The position numbers and the translations under genes are program-made. From an uncultured bacterium (GTDB lineage: Bacteria; Patescibacteriota; Gracilibacteria; Absconditabacterales; Absconditicoccaceae), in assembly GCA_963537415.1 (NCBI GenBank), contig CAUTDF010000002.1, positions 12,460 to 76,459 of the forward strand: a stretch of DNA of 64,000 nt. The letters are read 5' to 3'. Below the pieces are notes generated by a model, which saw only the letters and a list, made by a program, of their open reading frames with translations, searched no databases and was not told the DNA's origin. Below, one piece after another: positions 5,109-64,000 of the stretch. Positions within the stretch are counted from its first letter, which is position 1; every line of letters begins with the position of its first letter.

Positions 5109-6500
5109 TTAAAACTCGCAATTCTTAGGAGTCCTTGGGAAAGGAATTGCGTCACGAATATTCTCCATACCAGTTACATACATTACGAGTCTCTCAAATC
5201 CAAGTCCAAAACCTGAATGTGGAACGCTTCCATATTTTCTGAGATCAAGATACCATTGATAGTCTTCTGTAGACATTTCGAGGTTTTCCATCTTTTTTGT
5301 TAATTTTTCGTAGTTATCTTCTCTTTGAGATCCTCAGATGAGTTCTCCGATTCCAGGTACGAGCATATCCATTGCTCTAACGGTTTTCCCATCTTCGTTG
5401 AGTTTCATATAGAAGGCTTTAATTTCTTGTGGATAATCGGTTACAAATACTGGTCCGTTAAAGACTTTTTCTGAGAGGAATCTCTCGTGTTCAGTCTGAA
5501 GATCAATTCCCCATTCTGGAGCGTATTCAAAATTTTGTCCTGATTTTTTAAGGAGTTCAATTGCTTCAGTATAGGTTACTCTCGCAAATGTTGAATTAAC
5601 TAGTTTTTCAGCTCTTTCTTTTACTCCTGGGAAAATAAATTGGTCAAAAAATTCCATCTCAGCAGGAGCTTCTTCTAGAACATATCTAAGAACATATTTG
5701 ATCATATCTTCTGCGATTTGCATATTTTCTTTGAGGTCAGCAAATGCGATTTCAGGTTCAATCATCCAAAATTCTGAAAGGTGTCTTGTTGTATTTGAAT
5801 TTTCCGCACGGAATGTTGGTCCGAAAGTGTAGATTTTTCCAAAGGCAGAGGCAAAAGTCTCTCCCTCAAGTTGTCCACTTACTGTCAAACCTGCCTTTTT
5901 TCAGAAGAAGTCTTTAGAAAAATCAACCTCTCCAGATTCAGTTTTGGGAGTATCTTTAAGGTCTAGAGTTGTGATTTGGAACATTTCTCCGGCTCCTTCA
6001 GCATCACTTGCGGTAATAATTGGCGTATGTACTCGGATGAAACCTCTTTCATTAAAGAACTTATGAATAGCGAAAGAAAGCAGACTTCTTACTCTGAATA
6101 CTGCTGAAAAAGTGTTTGTTCTTGGTCTGAGATGTGCGATAGTTCTGAGATATTCAAAAGAGTGTCTCTTTTTTTGGAGTGGGAATGTTTCATCTGCTGC
6201 TCCTAAAAGTGTTATTTTTGTAGCTTTGAGTTCAAAAGCTTGTTTTGCTCATTCGGATTTTATGAGATCTCCTTCAATCTGAAGGCTGCTCCCTGTTCCG
6301 TATTTTACGACTTCATTGAAATTTTCAAGTTCTTGTTCAAAAACGATCTGAAGATTTTTTAGATATGAACCATCATTGAGCTCGATAAATCCAAAAGTCT
6401 TTGAATCTCTGAGACTTCTTACTCGTCCGTTTACGATGATCTTGCTTCCGATAAGTGATTCGTAGCTTTTATAGATCGTTTTGATACTTGTCGTTTGCAT
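5109..6500 (-). CDS. asnS: asparaginyl-tRNA synthetase
   Basis: N-terminal OB fold, class II motifs ([36 protein letters not shown]), C-terminal ...[11 protein letters not shown]. 463 aa joined across TGAs at 5334 and 6249. Confidence 0.93.
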
Positions 6501-6577
6501 TTTGAATGAATATATGAAAAAGTAAATTATCTGATTTATAGTGTTTTTTATAGAGAATACAAGTCTTAACAAGAAAA

Positions 6578-6604
6578 AAAATCTGATTTTTATTCAGATT
6601 TTTC
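6578..6604 (-). terminator. terminator built from an inverted AAAATCTGA/TCAGATTTT pair (downstream of dus)
   Basis: aaaaaaaATCTGAtttttatTCAGATttttt. Confidence 0.5.
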
Positions 6605-6725
6605 TTGAGGCATTGTGGGGTGAAGCTGTGGACATCTTATAGTCAGCAAGTTTGATTTTCATCTAGATACCTTCACTGTCATTCCTAATGATAGCTGCAG
6701 TGAAACCTCGCAATGATAGTTGGTT

Positions 6726-7804: not shown

Positions 7805-10105
7805 TTAACATTCTTCCAAAAATCTGAGTTCAACCTTTCTGAGTCAGAATTTTGGATTGTGAAATTTTACAATTCCGAGATTATTCCGTATTTCAAGTAC
7901 ATATCCAGTTCCAAAGAGCTTATGTCTTACAGTTGCTCATTCGGTGATTGAAGATTGATGTTGGGCTCCTCAACCTTTGGTGAGGTCGTAGAATTTGAGC
8001 AGATCATTTGGGATTTCCTGGAGAAATCTGCTGACAGGATTCATCTTGGTTTGCCCTCGAGTCATTCTGCTATTTGCATGCGAGATGAAGAGTGCGTCTT
8101 TGGCTCTAGTAATTGCGACATACATTAGTCTCCTTTCTTCTTCTAGCATTTTTGGTTCGAGAAGAGAGTTTGCGAGTGGAAAGATATTGTCCTCAGCACC
8201 TACGATAAATACAGCTGGGAACTCTAGTCCTTTACTAGAGTGGATCGTCATGAGTTTGACTGCGTCAGAATTTTCATCTGTATTTTCGATAGTATCTACC
8301 ATTAGGGTTACTTCTTCCAAAAATCGTCTCAGCAACTCTTCTCCAGAACTGATGATTTCTTCGTTTGCATTTGCGGTTCAAAATTCATATTTGCTCGCCA
8401 TGTTGATCAGTTGTCCAATGTTTTCGTACTTTTCTTCTGCAGTTTGTTCGCTGTCTTCTTCCTTGATAAGGTAGCCTTTATAGTCAATTTTTTTGACAAG
8501 ATATTCCGTGAGATCTGCTGGGTTAAGTGTTTTGATCGCTGTTGTTAATTGATTGAAAAGTTCAATAAAATCTTTGATCCCATCGAGTGCTGGAGTTGTT
8601 AGTTTGATTCAGCATTCTTGTTCAATTATTTTTGTCGTTCCCATTTCAGAAAGTGTGAGAAGTATTTCATAGAGGCTTACTCCCATTTCTAAGGCATAGG
8701 ATTCTAATCTTTCAAGTGAAGTTTTTCAGATTTTTCTATTTGGAATATTGAGTACTCTCTTGAGCGATACCGTATCAAATGGGTTATTGATGACTTTGAG
8801 ATAGGCAAGGATATCCTTGATTTCTTTTCTTTCAAAAAATTTAAATGCTCCATAGATTTTGTAGGGGATTCCTTCTTGGACAAAAAGAGATTCAAAATTC
8901 TGAGATTGAGAGTTTGTTCTATAAAGGATTGCTACCTGTCCTCGTGATTTCAGTTTCCCTTTATCTTTCATTTGTTTGATGAGATCAATTGTATTCGCTG
9001 CTTCATCAATATCGGTATTGTACGTGAGAACAGTAATTTTGTCGTTTCATTCTCTATACGCGATGATATTTTTTTCGTATTGGTTTTTATTCTGCTTGAT
9101 AACAGCATTACCTGCTGATACGATATGCGCTTTTGAACGATAATTGGTTTGGAGCTTAAACATTTGGATATCTGGCCAGTATTGTTTTACATTGAGAAAG
9201 TTCTCCATAAGTGCACCTCTTCGTCCATAGATACTCTGAAAATCATCTCCAATGAGCGTGATATTTGCTCATTCTCAGCTCATCATTTTCATCAGTTCAA
9301 ACTGGATCCAGTTGGTATCTTGCGCTTCATCTACGAGAATATAGTCAAAGCTGTTTTGCCATTTTTGAAGGACTTCAGGGTTTTTTTTGAAGAGTTGATA
9401 GGGGAGGAGCAGTAAATCATCAAAATCAAGGCTGTTTGATTTTTCGAGTTCCTTTTCGTATTCTTGGTAGAGTTTTCCCATCTGATCTTCATAGTTTCCG
9501 TTGCTATATTTGAGGAAAAGTTCTGCAGTTCTTCCTTCGTTTTTTTGCTTTGAAATAAAGCTTTTTACTTCTTGAGGTTTGAAGGTATCCGCCATTGCAT
9601 ATCTTTTGAGAATGTCTCTGATGATTTTTGCGCTATCATCGGCGTCTAAGATTCCAAAGTTTTTATTGTACTTCATCTCTAATTTTTCGATATCTTCCTT
9701 AAGAATTTTGAGGAAAATTGAGTGGAAAGTTCCAATCCATTTGAGTTTTCTTGGATCAAGGTGCTGCATTGAGCTCGGAGTAGTTGTATTCATTTCATTG
9801 AGAAAATCTCAAAAATCTGAGTCAGATTTTTGTTCTTCATTTGTAAATGATTGGCTAGAAATTTCGTCTCAAAGCTTGATCAGTCTTTCTTTCATCTCGT
9901 TTGCTGCTTTGTTGGTGAAGGTTACCGCTAAGATTCTCTCTACTTTGATATTTTTTCACCAGATTAGATATGCGATCTTGTAGGTAAGCACTCTCGTTTT
10001 TCAACTTCCAGCACCAGCAATAATCAGAGTTGATGTATTGGTATGGAGTGCAGCAGCGGTTTGTTCATCATTGAGATTTGAGGCGATATAGTCTTTGAGT
10101 TGCAT
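7805..10105 (-). CDS. pcrA: ATP-dependent DNA helicase PcrA/UvrD
   Basis: Walker A AGAGS-G-KT with the Gly encoded by TGA at 10001-10003, ILVDEAQDTN, TIHSSKGLEF, VAITRAKD, C-terminal Tudor-like tail. 766 aa. Confidence 0.92.
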
Positions 10106-13338: not shown

Positions 13339-14799
13339 TTATGCTGCAATTCTAAGTGTTTTCATCTTTTCTTTTGTAGATGGTTTTTCAAAGAATGCAA
13401 TCGCTTCAGCGAGTTCAGGCTTATTTTTAGCATATTCATGAATATCTACTCCTTTCTGATATGCTTCACAGGCTTGCACAAGAGCCTTAGCGCCTGACTG
13501 AGTTCCCTTTGGATGAGCGTGACATCCTGCACCCATTGTTGTGATGAAATCTACATTTCCCATGAGATCAATGAAAGGTTTGAGAAGAGTTGGATTGAGA
13601 CCTCCAGAGATGATAGGGCAGCAGGTCTTGATTGCTCTCCAGCTATCATCGGTAAGTACTTCTTCATTATCTTCGTCTCTTTGTACGAGAGCTACGAAGT
13701 CTTTATCAGTTTCTGGGATTGTTCCCCAAGACTGTTCAAAGATATGTCCAGTCTTTTTCATATATCTGATACCTTCTGCTGCAGTTACATCTTCTGCTTT
13801 ATCTCCAGCCATTTTTCCAACTCCTGCGGTTCCTGTATGGATTCCAGAAGCTCCAGCGAGTCTTGCAAATTTTGAAAGGACTAAAACTGAGTATCCAATA
13901 GGGTTTTCTGGTCTAGTGAATGCACCATGCCCAGCTCTATGAAAGTGGATAAATACATCTGGATACTTTCTTCTCAAGGTCTGAACAGCCATCCAACCTG
14001 CTGTTGTTCCATCAATTAGGAAGGCATAAGATCCTGGTTCAAATCCTGCGTTTCTAATCATCTCACATCTTTCGATCATGGTATCGTAATCAGCAGCTGA
14101 TACATTGAAAGAGTGCACCTTTTTCTGTCCAGTTTCTTTTACTGCTTTGTCCATAGCTTCCTTTACATGCTTTACCATTTTATCATAAGGACAAAAATCC
14201 TGATTTGCCTGTGGTTCATCATTTTTTACAAAGTCTCCTCCTCATACCCAAAAATCATAACATACCTCAGCGTATTCAGCAGAAGTAAGTCCCATCTTTG
14301 GTTTGATGATGGTTCCGAGGATTGGTCTATTGTAAACATTGAGGTATTTTCTCATGTCTGCTAGGGTATAGCTTGGTCCATCGTATTGTTCAAGCATTGC
14401 AGGTGGAAACCATACATCAAGAATTTTTAATGCTTTTACTTCCTTCATTCCAAAGACATTTCCCGCAATATAGGTGAGGATATTCTGAATATTTCCACCT
14501 CTATCAAAAAGTCTCCATGGGTATGCGATCCAGATAAGTTCTTTTTCGGCATCTACCTTATATACGAGGGCATTCATTTCTTTTGAAAAGGCAGTTTCCG
14601 TCTCAACTAGGAAATTTGTTCCAGTAGAGGATTCAGCTGCAACTTCACAAGCTGCCTGGAGAATGTTCATTGATTTTCCAGGTTGAAAGTGCGCTGCAAC
14701 AAGCATATATTGTCCATTTTTTGGATTTGGGAGATCAAGATTGACATAGGCCAATTGATGATCATTGAGTGTTGGTAAAAGGTCTTTTACGTTTGACAT
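13339..14799 (-). CDS. rbcL: ribulose-1,5-bisphosphate carboxylase/oxygenase large subunit, form II/III-like
   Basis: IIKPKMGL, FWV-G-GGDFVKNDEPQ (TGA at 14242-14244), IHFHRAGHG, SGGLNP, plus an insertion before SGGLNP (EQSWGTIPETDKDFVALVQRDEDNEEVLTDDSW). 486 aa. Consensus promoter upstream. Confidence 0.93.
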
Positions 14800-14934: not shown

Positions 14935-16083
14935 TTATTCTGCATCTTCAGTAGCTTCTTTTGCTTTAGGAGCTTTTTTTGTAGTTTCTCCTTCAGCTTT
15001 TTCTTCCAAGTGTTTCATTGAAAGTCCGATCTTTCTATTTTTAGGATCGATGAGGATAAGCTTAGCCTTTACAATTTGTCCAAGTTTTACGATTTCATTT
15101 GGATTGTTAACTGCTTTTTGAGAAAGCTCGCTAAGGTGAACAAGTCCATTGATATCGTCAAATACTCTCACAAATACTCCATAAGGTACAAATCTGATGA
15201 TTTCTCCTTCGATAATATCTCCAACTTTGTACTTCTTTGGAAGTTCTGACCAAGGATCTCCTTTGAGCTGCTTGCTTGAAAGAGAGATCTTTCCGTTTTC
15301 AAGACCAATTACTTTAACTTGCATCTTGTCTCCGATCTTTCCAAGTCTATCGATATCATTTACGTGTCCGTAAGTAATTTCTGAGATGTGAACGAGACCT
15401 TCAACAGTACCTCCGATAGTCACGAAAAGTCCGTATGAAGAGATTCCTGAAACCACTCCGTCAAATACTTTTCCAACTTCAAGTTCAGCAAGAACCTTTT
15501 CTCTTTCTTCTTTGAGAGCTTCTCTTTCAGAAAGGATAATTCTTCTGTCTTCTTCATCGATATTGATTACTCTTACCTTGATTTCCTGTCCGATAAGTTC
15601 AAGAAGTTTATCAAAGATAGCTTCTTGATCTCCATCTTCTACTCTAGGGTAGTGGATAGGAGCAAGTTGAGACAATGGGATGAATCCCTTGATACCATGC
15701 ATATCGATCAAAAGTCCTCCAAGGTTTGCCTCAGTAGGAACAACAGTGATGATTTCATCTTTTTCGAACTTTGCAATAACTGACTTCCATACGTCGTATT
15801 GGAGGAGTCTAGTTACTGAAACGATGTAGTATCCATCTTCGTGTCTTACAGCTGGATTGATAATCTCAAGCTCAAGTTCTGTAGATGGGTTAAGATCAAA
15901 TTGTGATCTTTTAAGTTCCTTAGCTTCTTTTGAAAGGATGATACCAGTAAATGCACCGTTTTCGCAGTTTACAAGAACTCCGTTCTCAATTTCTTTAAGG
16001 ATTGTTCACTTTACTTTTTGCCCTTCCTTGATAAGAGGAACTGTGAACTGGCTTGCCGCTGGGGCAGTAGCTTTTTTAGCCAT
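14935..16083 (-). CDS. rpsA: 30S ribosomal protein S1
   Basis: Four S1/OB repeats (GxVxG...YGLFV..., GLVHISE/GLVHLSE). 382 aa, single TGA. Confidence 0.88.
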
Positions 16084-16653: not shown

Positions 16654-17178
16654 CTATTGTTCTTCTGATTTTGCGTTATTTGTTGGGAAAGTATTGAGTT
16701 CCCATTTTGCTTCTCTATACCAGATAGTACCTTTAACTTTTGCTCGAGGTTTTATTATACTAGTATTTTCTTTGTATCCACGGAATACATACTCTCCACG
16801 TAGTCGCATCGAATTTTTGTCAAAATACCATTTAAAGCTTTCATCAGATAGCTTGAATTTTCTTGTGCGATTACTTCCTATATTGTATTGAAATATTTCC
16901 CATTCTCCGATAAATTTTGGTATATTAGGAGTCGTTATTTCTGTCGGTTCAAACTCTATGATAAGAGCATATTCAACTTCGCCTTTGTGATATTCTGATT
17001 GTGCTTGAATATAGGTATCCCACATAAAGCCGTTTGAAACTATTACTTCTGATTCAGATTTTTGAGTAGAACTTTCTACAGAAGTAGTGTAGTAATTGTT
17101 AATGATTTCTTCCTTTCTGCAAGAGCTAAAAGAAAGACTTAGTGTAAGCATTGTGATGATAATAATATTTCTTTTCAT
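16654..17178 (-). CDS. lipoprotein, unknown function
   Basis: MKRNIIIITMLTLSLSFSSC lipobox. 174 aa, no TGA, TAG stop, own hairpin terminator (16625-16647). Confidence 0.7.
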   Translation of the reverse strand: MKRNIIIITMLTLSLSFSSCRKEEIINNYYTTSVESSTQKSESEVIVSNGFMWDTYIQAQSEYHKGEVEYALIIEFEPTEITTPNIPKFIGEWEIFQYNIGSNRTRKFKLSDESFKWYFDKNSMRLRGEYVFRGYKENTSIIKPRAKVKGTIWYREAKWELNTFPTNNAKSEEQ

Positions 17179-17295: not shown

Positions 17296-17949
17296 TTATT
17301 TTCTTATTTCTACAGATCTTCTTGGATAGGTATTGAATTTTAGATTGTCGTATGTTTCGTATTTTATACTACCATCAATCCATGCATCCTTTAATTTCCA
17401 TTTGTAAGATTTTTCAATGTTTGATAATTTATACTTGTACTCTAGATAGAGAAACGGACTTTCTCCTTCATTCTTTTCTCCTTCTTTTTGGAATAGGTCA
17501 AAAGATCTGTCGTTTGTTGAAAGATCAATTACTTTTTCAATCATATTCTCTGATCTTTCTCCAATGAGTGACCATTGTCCTTTTAATTGGATATCTCTTT
17601 GATCTTCTATTAGATAGTTTTTGAGGTCATTGTTTCCCTTTTTGCTTGGAATTTTTATCTGTATTATCAGATAACCTTGACTCTCATCTAGTGAAGTATA
17701 CCATTTTACACTGTTAGAGATTGTGACTCTAGGTGGGGTGAATGGTATTAGCGGAGCTTGTTGTTCAGGAGTTGGAGGAGGAAGAAGTGTTTCTCCAGAA
17801 TCTTCTTTTTTGCAAGAAGTTGTCAGAGATACTACTACAAGGGTTGCGAGAAACAAAGTTACTGTCTTCACTTTGTTTGTCATGAGTTGGATGATTTTTC
17901 TCATTTTTGTTAAAATTAATTTGATTATATTTTTTGTTAATGATCTCAA
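17296..17949 (-). CDS. lipoprotein, unknown function (distant paralog of 16654-17178)
   Basis: ...TLFLATLVVVSLTTSC lipobox. No TGA, TAA stop. The true start may be an internal ATG (17904 or 17883). C-terminal W..L...(F/Y)P pattern shared with its neighbour. Confidence 0.65.
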   Translation of the reverse strand: MRSLTKNIIKLILTKMRKIIQLMTNKVKTVTLFLATLVVVSLTTSCKKEDSGETLLPPPTPEQQAPLIPFTPPRVTISNSVKWYTSLDESQGYLIIQIKIPSKKGNNDLKNYLIEDQRDIQLKGQWSLIGERSENMIEKVIDLSTNDRSFDLFQKEGEKNEGESPFLYLEYKYKLSNIEKSYKWKLKDAWIDGSIKYETYDNLKFNTYPRRSVEIRK

Positions 17950-19407: not shown

Positions 19408-22400
19408 ATGGTTCAAAATTCTATTGATGTTTTAAAGAGTTTGCAGTCTGAGACTGATAAGATCAAGGCAGATCTTGATGCTTTAAAAAAGCTGACAGAA
19501 AGCAAGGAAAAGGCTCAGAAAAAGCTTGAACTTTACCAATCTATTCAGGTTGTTCAGGAGCTTGCAAAAGTTCAGTTTGAGAGGGAGAAAGATCAAAATG
19601 TAAAAGAGAAGATTGCAGAGGTGCAATCTAAGGTTTCTGATTTTTCAAAAGAGCTTTGAAAACTAGAAGATGTGGTTTCTCAAGGGAAAGATCAAGCGGA
19701 TCAGGATTCTAGGACTATGAATCCAGATAATGGGAAAGATAAAACATCAACTCAGAAAAAAGAGGAGTGAACTTGGGCATCTCTCAAACATTTTACTGGA
19801 GAGCAGCGAGATGCGGTTCGTAGTAAGGAAACTTGGAGTAAAGAACCTGGGAAAAATATTCTTCGTACCGCTGGTTTTGTAGCTACAGGAGTTGGTGCTG
19901 CTGCTCTTGTGTATAAGGGGGTTAAGTGGCTCTTTGGTAGTGATGAGGAAGAAGAAAAGGAGGAAAATAGCAAAGAAGAATCAAAGTCAAAAAAAGAGAA
20001 AAAAGGCTGATTTTGGAATAGTTGGTTTTGAAAGGCTTTGAAATGGGGAGGAATAACTGCTGGTTCAATTTGGGGGATTAGTAAGCTCTGGAACTGGTTT
20101 AATGGCGATGTTGAGCCATCAAGGGGAGCTTCATGAGAAGATAAATACAATGGTTATGATAAGTTTCACTCTAATCCAGAAAATAAGGAAAAGGCTGAAA
20201 ATTATGAGAGGATTGGAGAGAATATCGATGTATTATATTCAACTTTTTATCAAAAGGAACTTGATGCTGGATATCAGGATGAGTTAGAAATGCAGAGAAT
20301 TTCTAATGAAATGAAAAAATCTAATCCTGATGCTAAAAATTATAAGTGAATCATCCCATTTTGTCTAGATAATCAATACGGAAGTGTTGCAGCTATTTTG
20401 GAGCAAAATAGTTCATTTAAGAGCTTGTTAGGAGAGGGATTTGCCAAGATGAAGAATCATATTCTCAGCTGGAGTACCGAGAAACTTGCTGTTTTGGTGG
20501 AATCATTTTTTAGTAAGTTGCCGTCTTGGAAATTGGTTGAAAATATTGAAGGATCAATCGTTGATAAAATTAAGGCGTGGGGAGAGAATAGTGAGGAAGC
20601 TCAGAATGAATTAAAATATTTTTTTAGGCAAGGGATCAGAGTTCAGACTTTCCTTTTTGAAAAGAAGGATCAGCTTGCTGATGCTATCGCGGAGAAAAAA
20701 TCTAAAACCCTTAATATTTCTAAGAAAGAGCTTCTATCTGATAGTGATAATTTTGAAAAATATATTGCAAAGGATCCTGATTATCAGGCTTTTGTCGATG
20801 CTCCAATTGCTGGTGCGATGAATATTCTCAAAAAATATGGGCTTGATTCAGCAGATGTTTCACAAGATCTTAAAGATGAGATTCAGAAACTTGATCAGAG
20901 AAGAGATGAGCTTTTGGATGCTCAGAGTGGGCAATCAGATATTTTGCAAGTAGCATATAATAAAAAGTCTGGAGAAGTATTTAGTCCAGATGAGAAAAAG
21001 AATCTTCAATCAGCATGTGAGAATGTTGCCAAAGATATTGATGAAGAATTGATTGATGCTGTTGAGGAGAGTGTATTAAATATGTATGGAGATCTATTTG
21101 CAACAGATAATGCATGTTTAAGAGAATATATTGAAAAATCTGGTCTTCATGAGATCCTTCGTGGTTCTCAGACTTTTCTCCAGCAACAAAAGCAGCGTTT
21201 GGCGAATTGAGAGGAAATTCCTACAGAGGAACTCAAGGCTACAGCTCAGGTGATGAATGATCTTTTAGCACTCAAAAAGGAATGTTTTCTCGGGCAGATG
21301 ACTATCCAAAAAGATATCGATGAGAACTGAAATATTATCTATAGAGTGCCAGGATTTTTGCTTGGATCAATAAAGAATTTATGAAAGAGTCTCAAACAAG
21401 TGTATAACTGAGAATATCTGTCAGGTTTTTCTACTTTTATGGGTTCGCTTTTGGGAACTGGAATTGTGATTAGTGCCGCAGGAGTGCTTATGAGAAGTAA
21501 TAAAACTGTGATTTTGGGACTTAAAACAGCGGGTGCTCCGTTGACAGTACCGCTTTTTGTGCTGAATAAATTGATGGAAAAAACCGCGATTGGAAGTAGA
21601 CTGAGAAATAAGATGATCTATGGATCTCCAAGCTGGGTACAGTCAAATCTTTTCTTTAGAGGTGAACTTGGACAAGAAAAATTGCTTACAGCACTTGATA
21701 ACTGAGATATTTCTCTTGAAAAAGTTGAGCGTATTTTGAGCAGAAAGAGCCATGCTCCGTTTATGGATGTAGATAAAAGAGAAGAGTGGCTCAAGATGTT
21801 CAATATATCCAAAGATACCAAGAAAGAGGACTATCTTGCTAAAATCTTTGATACCTATGTAACAAGAAAGAACGGGCAACAATATCTTTTTGATCTGAGA
21901 AATAATCATAGAAATCTGTATGATGATCTTGTAAAATACTTTGATCATTCTTCAGATATTAGAGAGGCGGTGAGGACCGGTGTAAGTCCAGATGCACTGC
22001 AGATCGGAGTTGATAAATTCAATAAGGGATTGCCTGTTGATTTTAAAGGTATTCAGCAGCTCTTGGATAGTCCTGAGTATAAGGGACTTGTGCAAAGAAC
22101 TCTTAATTCAAAAGCTTCCTTGTCAAAGCAGTTAAAAAAAACTAGTTCAGATGCTGGTAAGCTAAAAATCAAGCAACAACTTGATTCTTATGATGAACTT
22201 TTAGATATGTTGTCTTGAAAAACGAGTTCAGAAGTTGCTCAAATAGTTGATGTTTTAGATATGTTTTGACCATCTCAAGATGCTGGGCTCTCTGTTGCAG
22301 CGATCAAAAAGTTAAAAACTCTTTCTCGTCTTCAGGATGCGGTAGATGCTAATTGAAATAAACTGGTTTCTAATTTTGATGATATTTTGAAAAATCTTGA

Positions 22401-22584
22401 TACTGATGAATTAGTTAAATTGCTTAACAAAAAAATCGGTTGAGTGCTGGATTCAGAATTAGATAGTTTGATTAAAACTTTCAAAACTATTAAAGCTGAT
22501 GGATTTAAAAAGGCAATAAAAAATGCTGATGAGTTTGCAATTTGTGTGAAATCCCTCTTTAAGTTTGCAGCTAAGATTAGCTAA
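19408..22584 (+). CDS. giant orphan membrane-associated coiled-coil protein A (1058 aa)
   Basis: Single frame joins track ORFs 19408, 20398, 21439 and 21736. Gaps translated by hand contain only TGA (15 in total). Glycine-zipper/hydrophobic segments at about 19858-19935, 20011-20100 and 21436-21570. TAA stop. Confidence 0.75.
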
Positions 22585-22612
22585 TTTTATGTAATGAAAT
22601 AAAAAAAGTCTT

Positions 22613-25600
22613 ATGTCAACTCAGGTAGAAACACTTAAACAGGAAATTTCCGGGTATTATCTTGAGGATTTCAAAAAAGAGCTTTGATGGTTTAAATCAA
22701 TAGCACTTTTACCTATTGAGAACAAAGTGAAGGATATTATTGTTGGGAAAACTGAGCTACCAAAGCACTTTGATGAGGCAAAGGAGTTTGGTTGGTGGAG
22801 ATATATTATTGATTTTGTAGCGCCTTCGACTGCAAAGGAGATTTTCGAATTTATGAAAGCAAAAAGAATAGAGATTGAAAAAAGAAATACTCAAGAGGAA
22901 CTTTCCAGACTTAAAGCTGAAATTCTCTGAGAAGCTCCTGTAGCTGATGGGACAGAAAATATAGATCAGAATTCTGATCTTTCTTGAACTTCACATTCTA
23001 CTTCACATTCCGCAGATCAACAGTCTTGAAATACTTCTTCAGGTGCCGGTCTAGAGGGGCAGACTAGTGGAAGCTCTCCTGAGAGTTCTACAAATACTTT
23101 AGGAAATTCTTGGCATAATATTGGGTATGGAGCTTCAACTTCTATGCTTGGAGTTGGGGGAATTGAGACTGTGGATAGGTTGATTAAGCAGGCTGAGGCT
23201 CGCAATCTGAATAATATTGATGCAGCAAAGATGAAATCAGGAATGCATAATCTTATTGAGAACTTGGAAAATCAGAAAAAAGCGTTGAGCTCTCGTTTGA
23301 GTAAAAGACAAATCAAAAATATTGATAAAACGATTCAAAAGATGAGTTCAGGATTCGAATCTTTGGATGATGAAGGACTCGCGGCATTCAAACAGTGGAA
23401 TAGTCTTAAAGGACAGATTCCAGATGAGTTATTGACTGCTGCTGGAATGCATCCTAGGCAATTTTCAAAGCTTGCTCCCTATGCAGATGAATTGATTGGA
23501 AAAACGCCTGCAGAGATCCGTGAGATTATGAAACTGAAAAAAGTTGATATGGAACTCAGCGATGATGTCCTGAAGCTTTTAGGATCGGCTAAGGATGCTC
23601 AGGAGTTTCAAGCGATGAGTAATGTCCTCTCAAAAGGTAAAAAACTCACGCAGTGGGCAAAAAGTTTGAAAGCTGCTATGATGATTGATGTGGCATTTCT
23701 TGGACTAGATGTGTGGACTTACCTTGAGACGATGGATGAAGCGGAATTGATCGCAAAGGTTAATCAAACAAGGGCAGAGAACAAGAAAAATCAGGCAACT
23801 TTTCAGCTTGCAGTTTGACTTTCTTCTTTTGCGATAGAGGCGATTATTATCTGTGGTGGAATTGGAGCCGTAGGTGGTGCTCCTGGAGTGGTCGTTTGAC
23901 TTGCGGTTTGAGTAGTGACTGCTGCTGTGAGTATTGGAGCTGATGCCTTGTATTTTGATACGCATGATTTTTATCTGCAGAATAGGGAGGATTTCTTGAG
24001 GCAGAGTAGAGCTGAGCTTAGGCAAGCAGTTTTGCAAGGTTTACATAGTCAAAAGTTTTGAAACCAGTCTTGGAATGAGAAAATTGGTGCTCCTGCAGAT
24101 AATATAAAATCTAAAAACCTGGATGAAGCCTTGTATTCGCTTCTTTTTATTGAAGAGATGAGAGATAGTACAGATGAGATGCTTCATTATTATATCGCTT
24201 CTAGGAAGTCTGAGTCAGATTTTTTGAAAGATTTATCACCAGAGCAGGCTGAGGCATTTACTACTTCTCTGAAAAAAATCAAGGAGAAAATTGCTGTTAG
24301 GACTAAATATTTAACTGAGCAGTTTAAAAAGCCGAATCTGATGAATAAGCTAAAAAGCTGAGTAGGTACCTCAGGTTTGATTGATCTGGTCGCAGAGTCT
24401 GCTGGATATTTGAAGATGTTTGAAGCAAAAAAATGGGATGAGAATCTTGATTATGCCAAGAATCTGGCACAGTTTAAATCAGAATTTTTTGCAGATTTTC
24501 CGAGAGAGAAAGTTAAAAAACTTGAGGATTTGAGCAAGAATAATTGTTTCCTTTTTGAGGAACTGATTTCGGTTGCTGATTTTGATTCTTTGATGGCTGA
24601 GGGAGATTCTCCTGAGTATAGTCAGAATTTACACCTTATCAAAAAATATAGGGAATGGCTCAGTCTTGAGCAGAGAAGTGAGGAAGTATCATATTTTTCT
24701 CCTCAGGATACTAATAGAAATATGGCTATGCTTGAAAAGTTGATTGAGAATGGCTTTGATGAGCAGAAATTACAGTTTGAAACTTTGAATAAGAATGAAT
24801 TAGTTGATATTGTTCAGTTTGCTAAAGAGAGGAATTCAGATTTAGAGTATTCTGATGATGTAAGTCAAAATGTAAAGTATCAACTAGCCAAGAGGCTTTA
24901 TGGCTATGAGGGAGCGAATTCAGCGGAGGAGTTGATGGCTTTCTTTTCGGAGGATAAGTGAGGAGTTCATGGTATTTACTATACTAGTGAGTGGAAGATC
25001 AATAGAGATTGGCTGATAGATCGTGCATTATCCCAGCAGCTTCCCAAGGAAATAAAATCAGCGGATGTGCCTGGATTGGTTGATCGTTTGATTAGTGCTA
25101 TTCGTGGCTCAAATATTGATACGAAGACTGAGGCGATTGATCCTTATTTACAACAAGAGTTTGAGAAAGTGCTCAGAGGGATTTTGACTGAGGAGCTTGC
25201 AGCTAGAACGCTAGAGGAGCAAACAAGGGTCAAAAACCAGATTTCTACTTTTGTTAAAAATCATGTCTCTAATGGAGAGTATTTAGAATTGCCATATTAT
25301 CTGATTATTGAGGCGAAAAGAGCTGGACTTGGTGATCTGCAGAGAAAGTTTTTCACTTGGGAAGGAGGAAAAATGAAGATTTGTTCGATGAGTTCAGAAA
25401 TATGAGGTTTGGATGCTTTTGCTGGAGTTGAGAAGCAATATCTAGTATCTGATAGAACAAAATATAGTCCTGAACAGCAGAAGTGTATTGATCGTGTTGA
25501 ACTGGCACATAAAAAGTTAGAGGACTTGAGGGGAGTCGACTGAAGCTTTGGCTTTGAGGATGATTTAGATTTGCCTAGGGAACTTGAGCTTATGATCAGT

Positions 25601-26659
25601 CAGAAATATAAAGATCGAGAGCAAGTTAAGGCAAATCTATTGGTGTATGCTCCGTGAACTGCGGCGTCTTTGACATTGAGGCAGTCAGAGGAATATGCTC
25701 AGTATTTTGAAAATTTATATAAAGGTTTACTTTTGAGAGTGAGTCAGTTTAAGTTGACTAATGATATTGATGATTTTGGAAGTTTTCAAGAAGCAGTTAG
25801 GCTTGGTCAACAGAATATTTTTGATAAAGATGGAAATCTGAATGTAGAAAAGGATTCTCCGTTAGATCAGCAACCAATTAAAGCGTATTATGCGAAGAAG
25901 TTAGAAAGTCTTAAACTTAAGGTCAATGGAGAAGAGAAGTTGCTTAAATCACTTTGGTCCTCTGATAAATCTGAGGAACGTAAGTTGGCTTTGCGCGCTT
26001 CAAATCTTGTGATTGAAAAGATTTTAGAGTGATGGATGCTGAGAAATATTTGAACTACGAAGATGAATATTACTAAAATGAATCTAAATCAGTGACTTTT
26101 CGCTCAAATTGATAGGCGTATTCAGGAGCAGATTTCTTCTCTTGAGATAGTTGCGTATATTGATGATACAAAAATTCCTGAATGTACCTATGAAATCAAA
26201 ACACTTTCTCAGCCTGAGAAAGCGGTTATTGGAGGACTTGGAGAGTTGCAAAATCAGATTGAAAATCAGAAAGATACTGTCGTTTGGCAGGGGAAAAGAT
26301 GAAATATCGAGTATCTACCAAAAAGTTCAGAGATTAAAAGTCGAGGTCATAAGGTAAAATTTGAACAAAAGGCTGATAAATTTATGCTGTCAGGTTTATC
26401 TTTGGAGCTTTCTTTAGATGAGATGCTTTGGCTGGCGAACTTTAGAAATCGATGTGTGTCGAAATATCATGGGCAAAAGGTAGGATTTAAGACGGATTTT
26501 ACAAGCTTAGAGATTTTGAAGTTTAGATTTCAGCCGACGCTCGTTATTGATGGTACAACACTCGTGAAGAGATCAGATTTGGAAGCAAAATGTTGAGCAC
26601 TAAAAGATGATGCAAAGATGCAGAAGTTGGCAGATTGGCTGACAAAAGAGCTTTCATAA
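22613..26659 (+). CDS. giant orphan membrane-associated protein B (1348 aa)
   Basis: Single frame joins track ORFs 22727, 23144, 24131, 24377, 25067, 25670 and 26384. All gaps hand-checked (TGA only). S/T/G-rich linker 22931-23143. Glycine zipper IICGGIGAVGGAPGVVVGLAVGVVTAAVSIGA at about 23819-23945. Confidence 0.75.
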
Positions 26660-28965: not shown

Positions 28966-29036
28966 CAAGAGCAGTAGGAATCGAACCTACACCTCCAACT
29001 TCGGAGATTGGCGTGCTACCACTGCACTATGCTCTT
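28966..29036 (-). tRNA. tRNA-Arg(CCG)
   Basis: 71-nt cloverleaf: acceptor AAGAGCA/TGCTCTT, D stem GTGC/GCAC, anticodon stem CCAAT/GTTGG, loop CTCCGAA, T arm GTAGG-TTCGATT-CCTAC. Own promoter (29049-29076) and terminator. Confidence 0.8.
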
Positions 29037-37685: not shown

Positions 37686-39251
37686 TTATTTTCTCTTTGA
37701 TTTTTTCTTATTATTCTTTTTCTTTGCTTTAGATTTGTTTCACTGCGTTGGTTTTGTTCAGGAATTTTTTTCTAAAGTAGGTGGGGTAGGATTCTCGAGA
37801 GATTCCCACTTGAAGGCTTGAGGATCTGCTAACCTTTGTCCATATCGAATTCAGAAGATGAGCATAAATGGATAGACGATCATTCTATCAACAAAGGAAT
37901 GAAGTACCAGTCCTTCAATAGCCAGTCCCAAGAGTCAGAGTCCAAGCCCGATTGCTATGAGTATTTGAGTTAGCTTTTTTTGATCAGCTTTTTTTCATTT
38001 TTTGACTTCTATTAGGTAGGTTCTGATTTCTTTGAGTCCTTGCCAAAGGAGTCGTCCAAAACAAAATATCCATGGAATAAAGCCGAGTATTCCATATTCC
38101 ATAAAAATCTGGACATATTGGTTTTCTGGATTGAAGCCTGGAGTATCCATGCTATATTTTTGGTTGATTTCAGTGATAGTAGCACATCTTGTGTCTGTAG
38201 TTGCGTTTAGGCAGAGCTGATGCGAGGCTGGTCCAGAGTATCCTGCTCCTCGTCCAAAGAAAGGCTTTTGTAATCCTAGTTCAATACCAGCTTCGAGGAG
38301 TTTAATATGTCAGGTATTGCTGTGCTCTCTGGCGAATGCTCCTCTAAAGTAGAAAAATGCTCAAAGTAAGAGGATAAAAGCTGGAATTCAGATTTTTATA
38401 ATAATTTTTTTTGCGTCTTTTCGATGAAAAATGAGGATAAGGACTGCTGTTTGAAGGATCCATACTCCGATAGCGGCTCTTGAATAGGTTGAAAGAACGA
38501 TTGCTCCTGTTGCGATAGTTCGTCAGATCTGGGTTTTTCTAGACTGTTTTCTAAGGTAGGTGAGAGCAAAAAGTGGCCAGAATGCGATCAACCAGAATCC
38601 AAAACTGATAGGTCTCTCAAAGAGGAATTGATTTCTGGCGAGTCATTGGTTGATCTGTGTGTAGTAGACGGCAGGAGGATTTCCAGTCAGCGTTCCCTCA
38701 AAACTATCGCGAGAATAACCAAAGAGTTTAAGAAAGCTCGGAAGCAGTCCAATGATTGCCCACCAAATTACTCCTCCATAGATTGCTCATTTAAAAAGGT
38801 TTTCGTATCGCTTGTGAAATTTTGTATTGATAGGGAGGGCTCGGGCGAGTAGTCCTCAGAGAATAAATATGAGGAATCAGATCAGGTCATACTTTGCTGA
38901 GAGAATATAGGTTGAGATACTGACTTTTTGAACAATGACTGCGAGGAATGCTGTAACTATGCAGAGGATTAGAAATCAGCAAATAAATCTGAAAAAAGAG
39001 GTCTGTAAGAGTTGTTTTTGAGATAGGTTTTCAGATTTTTCTGATGATAAAAGGTATTTTTGTACCAGGAGTCGTCCAGCAATTAGCATAAAGATGAAAA
39101 TGAGTGCTTCTTTTCGTAGTCGGACTCGGTTTCGTATACCTTCGCTTCGTCAGAACTTGTAAGTGAAGAGCGTATGGAGAAAAAATTGGAGAAAGAGTCC
39201 AATCAGGAAGACTTTGATTAAAATATTAACGATTTTTGTGAGAGTTTTCAT
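37686..39251 (-). CDS. O-antigen ligase/polymerase-like (Wzy_C) polytopic membrane protein
   Basis: 521 aa. Frame hand-checked codon by codon (no TAA/TAG, about 19 TGA). More than 10 hydrophobic helices, STYSRAAIG and NPENQYVQIFMEYGILGF resemble the Wzy_C loop. Basic K-rich tail. Confidence 0.65.
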
Positions 39252-60547: not shown

Positions 60548-60582
60548 AGGCAAGGCTTCTAACTTTTTCTTAAAAAAATATC

Positions 60583-60610
60583 TTGACTTTCATAAAAAAA
60601 TCGTTATTTT
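60583..60610 (+). promoter_or_regulatory. cassette 1 promoter
   Basis: TTGACT (60583-60588)-N16-TATTTT (60605-60610). The block aaaaatcgtTATTTT is shared with cassette 2. Confidence 0.5.
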
Positions 60611-60654
60611 GTATTTTACAAATAAAAAAGTTGTACTAATTAAATTGTTTTTTT

Positions 60655-61179
60655 ATGGAAAAGATTTATCCTTCCGTAGGAGATGTTATCTCCCCAGTTG
60701 TTCCTAAAGCAACATTGTCAGCGTCAATAGAACTTTCTTATGCTGATCTCAAAGAAATTTCTAAAGCATTTTCTAGAGTTAATAAAGCTCTGGATAAAAA
60801 GATGAAAAGTTTGGGACCGGACTCTGGCGTTTCTCAAGAAGAGATCGTTGGAGATGTGGTTGATACACTTGCATCATCTGGGCGTCTTGCTGGGCTCGCT
60901 GCAGCTCCTGTAAAGGAGCTTGTGCTGAGTGATGATTTCTCGCTCTTCAAGCGGAATCTTGATGCTGAGATTAAACGCTATGGAGCTGAATGTAGAGATA
61001 AGGGGCAACCTCTGGTAACTTTTTATGCCCTCAACGGTAAAAAAGTTAGATCTAGGTTGGAAACTTGGATCCCTAAGTTGTTCGCAATTGAAAGCTGATG
61101 AACATTGCATCTTTTAGATGCGAAAACAGTACCTATATACAGGTGCTGTTTTTTGTTTAAAAAATATTGACTTTTATAG
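60655..61179 (+). CDS. orphan paralog cassette protein 1
   Basis: 147-aa core with no TGA, ending ...WIPKLFAIES. It is then followed by TGA-TGA (61096-61101). Strict table-25 translation runs through the terminator hairpin into the next promoter (TAG 61177). Confidence 0.6.
61125..61155 (+). terminator. cassette 1 terminator
   Basis: AACAGTACCT atatac AGGTGCTGTT plus T-run. Starts 24 nt after the TGA-TGA. Confidence 0.6.
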
Positions 61180-61194
61180 AAAAATCGTTATTTT
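61167..61194 (+). promoter_or_regulatory. cassette 2 promoter
   Basis: TTGACT (61167-61172)-N16-TATTTT (61189-61194). Confidence 0.5.
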
Positions 61195-61241
61195 ATAGAT
61201 TATATAAATAAAAGTAATCATTACTAAAAACATCATTTTTT

Positions 61242-61757
61242 ATGAGACAAAAAGGTCAAAATCAGATTGGGAGTTCTCTTTTCTCAGTCGAACTTCGGAA
61301 AATTATGCTGCCATTTATCGTGCTGTCTTACAATGATCTCAAAGAGCTTTCAAAAGCAATTACTAGAGTGAATAAACTTCTTAAGAAGTATAAAGATCAG
61401 AATCTTGAACTTGATTTATTCTCTAATGATTGTGAATCTTCCTTTTTGGGAGATGGGCTTGCTCAATTGGCAAATGAGCAAAAGCTTGCGCGCATGAAGC
61501 CTATGATTTTAAAAGAGTTGATGCTTTCTGATGACTTCTTGGAGTTTAAAAAAGGTCTTAAGGTTTATTTAGAATCTGCATCTTATCTGTTCCGAGATTC
61601 TGAGCAACCTGAGTTTCTTTTCTCAGATTCTCAAATCCTTCCTCCTGGAGTTTCTAAGTTTGAGCTTTGGGTTCCCAAGCTTTTATCTTTAGAAAGTTGA
61701 GGAAGATTGTATTCACTTTGAATAGGAAACAGTATCTGTCTCAGATACTGTTTTTAA
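61242..61757 (+). CDS. orphan paralog cassette protein 2
   Basis: 152-aa core, LSYNDLKELSKAITRVNKLL and ...WVPKLLSLES shared with cassette 1. TGA at 61698, then read-through of the hairpin to TAA 61755. Confidence 0.6.
61728..61756 (+). terminator. cassette 2 terminator
   Basis: Perfect 11-bp AACAGTATCTG tct CAGATACTGTT plus T-run. Confidence 0.65.
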
Positions 61758-61762
61758 ATTTC

Positions 61763-61790
61763 TTGACTTTTTCTTAAAAATGTTTATCTA
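61763..61790 (+). promoter_or_regulatory. cassette 3 promoter
   Basis: TTGACT (61763-61768)-N16-TATCTA (61785-61790). Confidence 0.45.
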
Positions 61791-61817
61791 TATATTCACA
61801 ATTAAATAAAAAAGGAT

Positions 61818-62237
61818 ATGGGAACAAAAGAAAAAAATCTGATTTTTGTCGCTCGTTGTCTAGGTAATGGAAAGATTATTCATTATTCTTTAGATGAGGT
61901 TAGTATTTTGGCTGAAGATGTTTTAGTCTATGCTCAGGCGCTTAAAGAGAAGAAGGACAACCGTTTGAAGAATGGTTTGTATCGTTATGATTATGCGAAT
62001 ATCGCACCAGATATTCTCTACAAATTAAAAGAGGAAAATAAGCTTAAGCTTGCAAATTCTCAAGTTTTATTAGCACTTGGGCGAGGCGCAGATTTCTTTC
62101 CACTAGTTTGTGAAATCAAGAATATTCAGTCTAAACTAGGAATGGGTAAAATAGGTAATTCTGGTCAACTTGAGCTTTCATCTGAAGCTCCTCTTTTTAA
62201 TACTTGGATTACTCGACTTCTACCCAAGCGGAATTAA
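61818..62237 (+). CDS. orphan paralog cassette protein 3 (divergent)
   Basis: 139 aa, no TGA. C-terminal FNTWITRLLPKRN aligns with cassettes 1 and 2, and its TAA falls exactly where they have TGA. Confidence 0.6.
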   Translation: MGTKEKNLIFVARCLGNGKIIHYSLDEVSILAEDVLVYAQALKEKKDNRLKNGLYRYDYANIAPDILYKLKEENKLKLANSQVLLALGRGADFFPLVCEIKNIQSKLGMGKIGNSGQLELSSEAPLFNTWITRLLPKRN

Positions 62238-62248
62238 AAAATTAGAAA

Positions 62249-62277
62249 AACAGCACCTGTATGAGGTCGCTGTTTTA
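62249..62277. terminator. cassette 3 / ruvX bidirectional terminator
   Basis: AACAGCACCT gtatg AGGTCGCTGTT plus T-run. Same AACAG...CTGTT stem family as cassettes 1 and 2. Confidence 0.6.
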
Positions 62278-62679
62278 GTTTTCAGATTTTTTTGATTGTT
62301 TTCGTCTTTCAAGGATAATCATTGCACTGATGGTGTCTGTCGTTGCATTTTTTTTGAAGTCAGAAACGATTTCTCCTGATTGCACACTACTGAAATCTTC
62401 ATCTATAGTTTCGATTTCAATCCTTTGATTTTCAATGATATAATTAAGAGATTCCATAAATTTTGTGATATGTTCTTGGATATCTTTTTGTTTCTGGGGC
62501 CATCAGAGAATGATTTTTCTAATGTGATATCTCTGGATGAGATCTGCTATATAGTAATAGGTCATTGCATCATTCATTACATATCCAATCGGAAAAACGA
62601 CATCTGCATTGAGCGGAGTATAGGCGAGGCCAATATATTTACTACCTCGATCAATACCAAGAGCATGAGAAACTTTCAT
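62275..62679 (-). CDS. ruvX: YqgF/RuvX-family nuclease (pre-16S rRNA nuclease)
   Basis: LGIDRGSKYIGLAY, IIL-G-WPQ, IDEDFSSVQS, DTISAMIILE. 134 aa. Confidence 0.75.
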
Positions 62680-62918
62680 TGTTTATCTATCGAAAATAAA
62701 GAAAAAGAAATCAGAATTTATTGTCTTTTTTCTGTCTATAATCCTAAGAATATGCTTGATAAAAGCAAGGGCATTTCTTTCACTGGGCTTTTAGATCTTT
62801 GGGAGTGGGGGAGGGGAGGAACAGTAGATTTTTTCTCTTGAAAACAAGGAGCGAATAGCTAGACTTAATTTCGGTTTCAAATTTTTTATTATTTCATTAT
62901 TTTGGACAATGGATAAGA

Positions 62919-64000
62919 AATTAGCAAAAGCTCAACAGAGCAATTATACTATTACGATTTCGTTTTCTGATGAGGAAAAAAATGGAGTGAGAAGTCATGT
63001 TTTGCAACATTTTGCAAAGGATATGAATGTTCCAGGTTTTAGAGCTGGGAAAGTGCCTTTGCATATTGTAGAGCAGAAGGTTTCTCCTGAATATATCAGT
63101 ATGGCAATCAATGAACATTTGATCAATAAGGGACTTCAGGCTTTATTAGCTGAAAATGCTGATATTAAGTTTATCGGAGAGCCTTACGCTTTTGATACTA
63201 AAGATGAGAAGGGAACTACAACGGTAACTTTTTCTCTTGATGCATATCCTGAGGTTGATGTAAAGGGAAAGAACTGGTCTGCAGTTAAAATGGATGGAAT
63301 TAGCGTAGAAGCTACAGAGCAGGAAGTAGAGGATTCTTTGCTCAATATTCAGAAGAATTATGCTGATTATAAGGATGCTGAAGTTGTAGCTTTGGATACT
63401 ATTTCAAAGCTTGGGCTTGAATTTTTTGATGCTGAGGATAAGAGTATTGAAAAGGGGACAACATATCTTGGAGAAGTAGAGTTTGCTGAGGATAAGTTTT
63501 GGGCAAAGACCTTTGAGGGAAAAAAGAAAGGAGAAGTGATTGAGCTTAAGTATGATGAGAAGAAACTTCCTGCTGTTCTTAAAGCAAAGCATGAAGGAGC
63601 AAAAGTTTTGAAGGTAACTATTCAAGATGTGAAGCAGATTGTACTTCCTGAACTTAATGATGAAATGATCGTAAAGCTTTTTGGGAAGGATGCAGAGGTA
63701 AAGACTAATGCTGAGCTTAGAGAATATATTAAAAAGGAGATTCTTAAACAAAAGCAGGAAAATAGTTTGATTCAGACTGTTGAGAACTATCTTTCTGAGG
63801 TAAAGAAGAGTGGGGTTGAGGTAATTATCCCTAAGACTATGGTTGATCAAGAATTAAAGGTAAGAATGCAGAATTTGGAAAAGAGGTTTGGATCTGCTGA
63901 GAAGGTTGCTGAATATTTCTCTCAGATCGGAGAAGAAAAGGCAAAGGAATTTATAGAAGGAATTCAATCAGCAGCTAAGGAGAGTCTTGAAAAGTTCTTT
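62919..64000 (+). CDS. tig: trigger factor (3' end beyond window)
   Basis: NVPGFRAGKVPL, PELNDEM... Open frame with no stop of any kind, and no TGA, over 360 codons to the window edge. Confidence 0.9.

Follow-up and report, generated by a model that had tools for sequence, protein, structure and literature searches.

Conserved reading frames that end on TGA in an oral SR1 bacterium in which TGA encodes glycine

How is translation ended in a gene whose conserved reading frame closes on TGA when the host reads TGA as glycine? The question is raised by a 64 000-nucleotide stretch of contig CAUTDF010000002.1 (referred to throughout as the window), from the genome of a human-oral member of candidate division SR1 (Absconditabacteria), in which three gene cassettes (c1, c2 and c3) lie between rpoD and ruvX. 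Two of them, c1 and c2, close on TGA, and the next in-frame TAA or TAG is reached only at or beyond the end of a predicted transcription terminator. An initial annotation of the window had proposed that this TGA occupies the ancestral stop position and that, under translation table 25, the genes would have hairpin-encoded tails or mRNAs lacking a stop codon. The comparison of 33 loci (window included) upholds this proposal: TAG stands at the same position in a fourth paralog (c2′) and TGA in orthologs of c3, the tails change frame between orthologs, and 66 of 67 cassettes would give stop-free transcripts. The observation is reproducible over the 33 loci; as to how translation ends at these codons, the mechanism lies between read-through, which is tentatively preferred, and a stop-like action of UGA, which is possible and clearly less probable. 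Code 25 has been published as a clean reassignment in which TAA and TAG are the sole stops, whereas in the window TGA has been retained by a few genes at the position where a conserved open reading frame (ORF) closes. The literature yielded no account of code-25 genomes with ORFs that end on TGA.

Stop position of the cassettes

TGA is a sense codon throughout the window (G+C content ∼35%). Stop-to-stop ORFs of at least 150 amino acids add up to 80.5 kb with TAA and TAG as the only stops versus 13.6 kb if TGA is also taken as a stop, and TGA makes up 1.7–1.8% of all codons and ∼27% of glycine codons. The reassignment in SR1 was reportedly described by Rinke and coworkers in 2013 (cited in PMC8629427 and PMC13462651). 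Where TGA codons differ between the window and 12 related loci (in hyp431, hyp165, greA, ftsJ and rpoD), the exchange is TGA/GGA (47 alignment cells) or TGA/GGT (six cells), with no others; an in-frame recount over ∼30 loci gave 16 polymorphic columns, three of them in tig, and all of these were TGA/GGN columns. In rpsO, a TGA three codons before the stop is aligned to a conserved glycine of S15 (‘kkiXlk’ versus ‘nklGlr’). On the evidence of these alignments TGA is glycine, not tryptophan, in the SR1 genes of the window. In the passages on code 25 in PMC13462651 and PMC8629427, its signature is given as the loss of release factor 2 (RF2) together with a tRNA-Gly(UCA); the reassignment of UGA is common to all known Absconditabacteria and Gracilibacteria, and hence ancient (PMC13462651, PMC8629427). 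Two tRNA genes (anticodons CCU and CCG) are present in the window, and no tmRNA gene was found within its 64 kb.

The three cassettes are separate units on the forward strand, each with its own TTGACT-type promoter-like site and its own predicted hairpin and T-run terminator. The cassette coordinates, end sequences and TGA/TAA positions of the initial annotation proved correct on re-reading. The promoter-like site of c1, located by a promoter scan (60583–60610; TTGACT, 16 nt, TATTTT), lies in a 70-nt block of promoter and 5′ untranslated region (UTR) that recurs before c2 and, in a shorter form, before c3 (repeats D1 and D2). The conserved ORF of c1 (60655–61095; 147 codons, none of them TGA; 24 unique orthologous cores) ends …TWIPKLFAIES and is followed by TGA TGA (61096–61101), the first of which is kept in 33 of 33 loci and the second of which is TGA, CGA or CAA. 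A spacer (61102–61126) with a small hairpin (61107–61121; GCATC at 61107–61111, loop TTTTA, GATGC at 61117–61121) separates these codons from the c1 terminator (61127–61154; stem-loop 61127–61148, T6 run 61149–61154), which was identified by a scan and RNAfold (ΔG = −10.2 kcal mol−1) and is present in all loci. The rest of the table-25 tail of c1 (61155–61179) runs to the next in-frame stop, TAG at 61177–61179; this read-through frame runs, as initially described, into the −35 box of c2 (TTGACT, 61167–61172), which it crosses before it stops just past it.

The promoter-like site of c2 (61167–61194) is followed by an ORF of 152 codons (61242–61697), again without TGA, that ends …LWVPKLLSLES, is 38% identical to c1 and occurs in six of the 33 loci. 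It closes on TGA (61698–61700), followed by GGA. The c2 terminator (61730–61757) consists of a stem-loop at 61730–61750 (stem −10.0 kcal mol−1) and a T-run at 61751–61755, at the end of which the first in-frame TAA (61755–61757) is met, also as initially described. A −35-like TTGACT was read in the sequence before c3 (61763–61768, in repeat D2). The ORF of c3 (61818–62237; 139 codons, no TGA) ends …TWITRLLPKRN-TAA (TAA at 62235–62237), and its terminator (62251–62276) is bidirectional, shared with ruvX on the reverse strand (62275–62679), with the c3 stem at 62251–62272 (−9.3 kcal mol−1). All stems (−9.3 to −10.2 kcal mol−1, followed by T4–T6) are kept in the 33 loci and are predicted to be intrinsic terminators. 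The stem begins 31 (c1), 32 (c2) and 16 nt (c3) from the stop-like codon, so that the initial figure of about 25 nt was roughly right. No TGA occurs in the 438 codons of the three cores, as had been counted, and the 27 GGN codons agree with the initial estimate of 25–30 glycines. The table-25 gene models of c1 and c2 comprise 174 and 171 amino acids, respectively.

The relatives of the locus, from GTDB genomes and metagenomes, are entries named ‘candidate division SR1 bacterium … ORAL’ and metagenome-assembled genomes, and every one shows the gene order greA-ftsJ-rpoD-[cassettes]-ruvX(−)-tig. Copy number varies: many loci hold just c1 and c3, six (the window among them) hold c1, c2 and c3, and 11 hold c1, c2′ and c3, the fourth paralog (MTKL.QIS…) taking the place of c2. 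The stop position is the tenth codon after a conserved Trp. At this codon c1 has TGA in all 33 loci, c2 has TGA in all six and c2′ has TAG in all 11, and c3 has TGA in 28 loci, TAA in four and a frameshift to TAG in one; no other sense codon was found at this position in any cassette of the 33 loci. The TAA of c3 occurs in the window, L023 and L024, which form part of the RLLPKRN allele group, and independently in L042 of the RLYPKGD group; it was derived at least twice, TGA being the majority state in both groups. Over the last ten codons of c3, T-G-A versus T-A-A is the sole difference between L005–L007 and the window. In L011 a 1-nt insertion (an extra G in a GGGG run) shifts the TGA of c3 out of frame, and TAG follows three codons later, before the terminator; the extra G (L011 4960–5001, orthologous to 62205–62237 of the window) is either real or an assembly error.

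The four paralog types yield 65 unique cores, all of them free of TGA, and 13 glycine columns in the cores vary among GGN codons. These comparisons support the view that the TGA marks an ancestral or functional stop position, at which it would have been exchanged with TAA and TAG by paralog and by strain. As far as evolutionary evidence goes, TGA is both a sense codon (TGA/GGN, in neighbouring genes) and an ORF-end codon (TGA/TAA/TAG, in the cassettes) in the same genomes.

The same geometry had been pointed out for a small lipoprotein gene on the reverse strand, and this was confirmed. Its core (2695–2934, ATG at 2934; 80 codons, lipobox LLVSC, no TGA, end …PPLSLQAS) was first looked up by exact protein match in its neighbourhood, which gave short, near-identical contigs of no comparative value; a wider set, of orthologs with 65–98% identity, keeps the TGA at its end (2692–2694) throughout, and no replacement by another codon was found. 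This TGA sits 15 nt before a bidirectional terminator (2655–2679), and the table-25 tail (2629–2691) takes in the terminator and a second TGA inside the hairpin. The only in-frame TAA (2629–2631) lies beyond the hairpin and overlaps the 3′ end of a convergent gene (2373–2648); in some strains it has become GAA, which adds 31 residues antisense to the neighbouring gene. The length of the public calls (proteins P0035–P0062) follows the code applied: 80 amino acids under table 11, 101 under table 4 or 25, and 131–132 where TAA is replaced by GAA. The terminal TGA is given as W in table-4 calls and as G in table-25 calls, table-11 calls end there, and the NCBI table-25 annotation includes the terminator-encoded tail.

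Sequence downstream of the terminal TGA

In its pattern of change, the sequence after the TGA evolves as a 3′ UTR and has a non-coding character. Within the flank, variability peaks in the first 9 nt after the c1 TGA (TGA/CGA/CAA, ACA/CTA, TTG/TCG/CTG). Indels of 1–2 nt affect the small hairpin (in its loop), the terminator (stem and loop) and the T-run, amounting to at least four independent events in the ∼60 nt of the c1 tail versus none in the cores. Orthologous tail peptides are consequently read in different frames (TLHLLDAKTVPIYRCCF versus TLHLCRCQNSTYIQVLFFVF), and the c1 tail has nine different lengths among orthologs. Homology also links the c1 spacer with the true 3′ UTR that follows the TAG of c2′. 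A likeness between the c1 and c2 tails (…R-C/Y-C-F) stems from the terminator sequence that they share. The first in-frame TAA or TAG lies 3–63 nt beyond the T-run in 66 of the 67 TGA-ended cassettes (18–46 nt beyond it in the other c2 loci), and if transcripts end in the T-run, as read from sequence only, the mRNAs of these 66 would be free of stops. The tails measure from 19 to at least 38 codons versus a random expectation of 19, from which it follows that backup stops are not selected.

Were the tails functional C-terminal extensions, the table-25 models of 174 and 171 amino acids would be correct, and public table-25 and table-4 gene calls do contain them; for c1, the public calls are split between 147–148 and 169–186 amino acids. 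Against this, conservation of the tail in other table-25 homologs was not seen: the frame differs between orthologs (TLHLLDAKTVPIYRCCF versus TLHLCRCQNSTYIQVLFFVF) and the length takes nine values, c3 is without a tail in four loci, c2′ has none, and the lipoprotein tail changes by 31 residues through TAA/GAA. At the level of sequence conservation the functional extension is refuted, and it is considered very improbable.

The small c1 hairpin begins 11 nt downstream of the T that opens the first TGA, and of the 23 unique c1 flanks nearly all retain it, the variants being a 1-nt indel in the loop and one T-to-C change that converts a G–U pair to G–C. A hairpin resembling a selenocysteine insertion sequence (SECIS) and conserved ∼11 nt after the UGA in all members was not found, the c1 hairpin not being kept in the c2 variants and being absent from c3, and Rfam gave no match. 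No conserved stop that could serve a +1 or −1 frameshift at the TGA was found nearby by inspection.

Read-through and stop-like readings of the terminal UGA

The most conservative reading, and the one that is preferred here while being held short of probable, is a read-through of UGA that is tolerated with the help of ribosome rescue. The selected protein would end nine residues after the conserved Trp, the next codon being the stop position of the family. Because the host decodes UGA as glycine and is expected to lack RF2, ribosomes would most likely read through this codon. On terminated transcripts they would run off the 3′ end about 17 codons later and need rescue; on transcripts that extend through the terminator 19 to at least 38 residues of unconstrained tail would be added. 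The cell would have to tolerate this, and a G-to-A change from TGA to TAA may now and then restore a stop. The change between TAA and TGA is the classic transition of stop loss or stop gain, and its direction in c3, with TGA in the majority and TAA derived, fits slow repair. The situation is like that of non-stop mRNAs and their rescue (tmRNA–SmpB, ArfA/ArfB), in that 66 of 67 cassette mRNAs would be stop-free if ended at the hairpin. Non-stop messages are normally accidents, whereas here the state is fixed over many strains in constrained and probably well expressed genes.

Several points weigh against tolerated read-through. If the terminal TGA were a plain glycine codon it should drift to GGA, CGA or AGA as its neighbours do, and no such codon was seen. 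In ∼30 genomes, 42% of the fourfold-degenerate sites vary in rpoD, ruvX and tig, equivalent to at least 0.50 events per site; for the c1 and c3 TGA at least 2.7 sense-creating changes would be expected and none was observed (P at most ∼0.07), the only changes at these codons being two G-to-A switches to TAA. The value of P would shrink under a deeper genealogy of the cassettes. On the other hand, the cores are less conserved than the 3′ flanks, and the invariance of the TGA is in part explained by common ancestry or gene conversion. The indication of selection on the terminal TGA, drawn from these substitution counts, is suggestive and not conclusive. Furthermore, the cores avoid TGA fully, so that selection on these genes is efficient, yet the seemingly costlier terminal TGA is kept in c1 in 33 of 33 loci. 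Trans-translation, moreover, normally tags the products of non-stop mRNAs for degradation, which is awkward for constrained proteins that are probably well expressed.

The main rival is a stop-like terminal UGA, an explanation that is possible without being likely. Some ribosomes would terminate or be released at the UGA before the hairpin, or slow decoding by tRNA-Gly(UCA) would pause the ribosome there. In the pausing version the hairpin would form behind RNA polymerase, and TGA would be equal to TAA or TAG for transcription termination, as a fast GGN codon would not. If the protein ended at the terminal UGA, …LETWIPKLFAIES would be the peptide with a free C-terminus. The explanation draws on the exchange of the terminal TGA with TAA and TAG only, which extends over more than 80 unique sequences from four gene families and contrasts with the variability of the 9 nt that follow, the greatest in the flank (P at most 0.07), on the lack of TGA in cassette cores in which 13 glycine columns vary among GGN, and on the missing selection for backup stops, with tails that exceed the random 19 codons.

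The spacing of TGA and hairpin also fits a stop-like UGA. The window holds ∼21 gene-end terminators, of which 18 are preceded by TAA or TAG, and TGA alone precedes the hairpin in c1, c2 and the lipoprotein gene; the distance to the hairpin is 15–32 nt for the TGA-only ends and 2–32 nt for canonical stops. A scan of nine further loci for TGA-only ends before a terminator returned only the cassettes, together with spurious antisense ORFs. The enrichment of TGA near terminators that a census was to reveal according to the initial annotation was not borne out, four cases being observed versus ∼4 expected; the true anomaly is the lack of a canonical stop after the TGA.

Against a stop-like UGA, sense TGA is not depleted near real stops (eight observed versus 9.5 expected in the last ten codons and 17 versus 19 in the last 20). 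In rpsO a TGA that lies three codons ahead of the stop is decoded as glycine, and in miaA a distance of 30 nt separates a sense TGA from the terminator. For the window genes whose last ∼12 codons include TGA (miaA, a comF-like gene, an ASCH-domain gene and others), comparison with Pfam profiles showed normal ends. The terminal TGAs share neither a +4 base nor a sequence context, and the small c1 hairpin is not conserved in c2 or c3. To our knowledge, no bacterial factor that reads UGA in the absence of RF2 has been described (cf. PMC13462651), which also counts against a stop-like UGA.

The absence of TGA from the cassette cores had been taken initially as an argument in itself. The count was right, and the argument is weaker than claimed, since other genes that are probably highly expressed have almost no TGA either. 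The use of TGA in the window is bimodal, with a low class at ∼0–3% of glycine codons versus 17–43% in the bulk; the low class comprises tig, an S1-like gene, the gene at 13339–14799, two tandem lipoprotein genes and the cassettes (examples at 13339–14799, 14935–16083, 16654–17178, 17296–17904 and 62909–64000) and probably reflects an expression-linked avoidance of UGA. As such a class exists, the TGA-free cores fit high expression and are no proof of a foreign or special code. A Fisher test of TGA/GGN versus GGN-only polymorphic columns gave P = 0.11. On the initial suggestion of context-dependent termination the evidence is divided: the exchange of TGA with TAA and TAG only (P at most ∼0.07) speaks for it, and the undepleted sense TGA and the glycine at the third codon from the end of rpsO speak against it. 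That UGA has retained an additional, stop-like function at certain gene ends ahead of a hairpin, be it release or a pausing and rescue that would set the C-terminus and let the terminator form, is judged rather doubtful. At the other extreme of TGA use, the ASCH-domain gene (3020–3349, reverse strand) contains seven TGA versus one GGN, and its neighbour (3359–4237, reverse strand) 11 TGA versus six GGN.

Origin of the cassettes and significance

By sequence comparison the cassettes are a real, constrained and fast-evolving orphan family that is confined to an SR1 clade. The ratio of nonsynonymous to synonymous divergence (dN/dS) is 0.3–0.35 for the cores (0.31 for c1), with a mean pairwise dS of 0.42–0.50 and a maximum of 1.3, and the ORFs are intact in 83 cassette copies; the flanking genes have a dS of 0.16–0.23 and a dN/dS of ∼0.025. 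The paralogs are 20–38% identical, and the family was found in five closely related GTDB species only. An AlphaFold2 model of c1 is mainly helical (pLDDT 80, pTM 0.73) with the first 20 residues disordered, and a fold search returned no neighbour in the PDB. Neither Pfam nor PHROGs contains a family for the cassette proteins (no PHROG match below E = 0.005), and BLAST gave no match to phage DNA. When 1.84 billion representative proteins were searched with a profile, the only hits were family members and TPR-repeat proteins of eukaryotes, and the TPR-repeat proteins, which match a helical ‘SY.DLKEISKA’ stretch, were rejected as false positives. No homolog outside the family was found in collections of 5.8 billion and 1.84 billion proteins. 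The cores are far more diverged than the rpoD, ruvX and tig flanks, while promoters, 3′ spacers and terminators stay alike (60560–62300 and 32 related loci), a pattern that suggests long-standing alleles or recombination between the conserved flanks.

In the window, CGA and CGG act as Trp codons, matching the Codetta prediction for Absconditabacteria. An AsnRS-like gene (G[X]VR..RD and GFI[X]VHTP) and motif III of UvrD/PcrA (QSIYG[X]RGA) have them where Trp is invariant, they are exchanged with TGG in orthologs of ruvX, hyp230 and tig, and 13 CGA codons occur in one membrane-protein gene. The tRNA called as Arg(CCG) by ARAGORN carries A1:U72 and G73, which are identity elements of the Trp type. 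These codons and the tRNA lie on the reverse strand at 28966–29036, 5109–6662, 7805–10105, 62275–62679 and 37686–39251. In the cassettes, CGA/CGG is enriched 3.4-fold (six in 438 codons versus 40 per 10 000 genome-wide) and is exchanged with AGA, CGC, CAA/CAG and GGA, not with TGG (60655–62234; L001–L012 and L023–L042); cases in point are EC[AGA/CGA]D of c1 and W-I-T-[CGA]-L of c3, the latter with K or Q in the paralogs. The pattern of exchange is suggestive of an Arg-like, standard-code usage of CGA/CGG in the cassettes and is ambiguous.

A standard-code donor or mobile element had been put forward initially as the source of these genes. The cassettes and, separately, the lipoprotein gene would then derive from a bacterium, a phage or another element and be incompletely adapted; as a statement on origin, this is compatible with read-through in the present-day cell. 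It would account for cores that in all four paralog types are free of in-frame TGA, for a stop set of TGA, TAA and TAG, for the excess of CGA/CGG with its Arg-like exchanges (TGG exchanges being seen in housekeeping genes) and for the confinement to a narrow clade, and ‘Code-11-compatible’ Absconditabacteria phages have been described (PMC10746230). The CGA/CGG excess is the sole hint to survive, no positive evidence having come from synteny, composition or outside homologs. The rpoD–ruvX synteny holds in 33 of 33 loci with no mobility genes at the cassette locus, no homolog was found beyond the family in the two protein collections, and neither PHROG, Pfam nor phage DNA was matched. The GC content, GC content at third codon positions (GC3) and codon usage of the cassettes are within the range of the genome (leave-one-out codon-usage likelihood, z from −0.6 to −1.6), and in type their promoters and terminators do not differ from those of native neighbouring genes. 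Paralogs of 20–38% identity and an allelic dS of up to 1.3 point to a long residence, over which amelioration would be expected. The codons that alternate with CGA are all single-nucleotide neighbours, and alleles with AGA and CGA also differ in adjacent residues. On balance, a standard-code source is unlikely.

The genes might alternatively be relics of the stop set that preceded reassignment, in which TGA was never replaced, as had also been suggested. The position of the TGA is the one feature in favour. Since the reassignment is ancient and common to all Absconditabacteria and Gracilibacteria (PMC13462651, PMC8629427) and the family is narrow, with five closely related GTDB species, and since at such a pace of evolution (dS of up to 1.3) an unselected codon would not last, this origin is scarcely credible.

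Two adjoining giant ORFs of 1058 and 1348 amino acids (19408–22584 and 22613–26659, forward strand), rich in TGA, look lineage-specific, the second with a hydrophobic segment. Their assignment as RpoB/RpoC (19408–26659) was rejected in favour of two very large hypothetical proteins.

Among known systems, published code 25 is matched in that TGA is glycine throughout the window and CGA/CGG is Trp-like. Like the ‘Code-11-compatible’ phages (Liu et al., 2023; PMC10746230), the cassettes are without in-frame TGA, can end on TGA and are readable in both codes. In those phages, however, TGA stops are closely backed by other stops, whereas in the cassettes 19 to at least 38 codons separate the TGA from the next stop, which lies past the terminator; unlike the phages, the cassettes are chromosomal and syntenic with no phage context. 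The context-dependent stops of ciliates (Condylostoma) and of Blastocrithidia are eukaryotic and depend on eRF1, poly(A) and PABP, and the codon is depleted upstream of real stops. The cassettes resemble these systems, which are touched on in PMC13092985, in that a codon has a sense meaning inside genes and stands at ORF ends near the transcript 3′ end. An upstream depletion of the Condylostoma type is not seen in the SR1 window, and the likeness is an analogy only. As in attenuation, a slow codon 15–32 nt before a terminator hairpin would lie inside a translated frame, and by analogy the position of the ribosome could decide on folding; unlike attenuation, there is neither a leader peptide nor an alternative antiterminator, and a gene's 3′ end, not a 5′ leader, carries the element.

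For annotation, the table-25 and table-4 calls add 20–45 spurious residues to these genes (174 versus 147 amino acids for c1, and 101 or 132 versus 80 for the lipoprotein), and the table-11 calls happen to be right here. If UGA is stop-like, table 25 would systematically over-extend some genes, and UGA would be the first dual-meaning codon of its kind in bacteria. Stop reassignment in bacteria is pictured as complete, with RF2 lost and UGA always read as an amino acid; in this code-25 host, conserved genes close their selected frame on UGA. Either non-stop or tailed products are made routinely from constrained genes and coped with by rescue, or there are contexts in which the reassignment of UGA is incomplete. 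For the oral SR1 bacteria themselves, the cassettes constitute a hypervariable orphan gene family of variable copy number beside rpoD, which may bear on their episymbiotic lifestyle.

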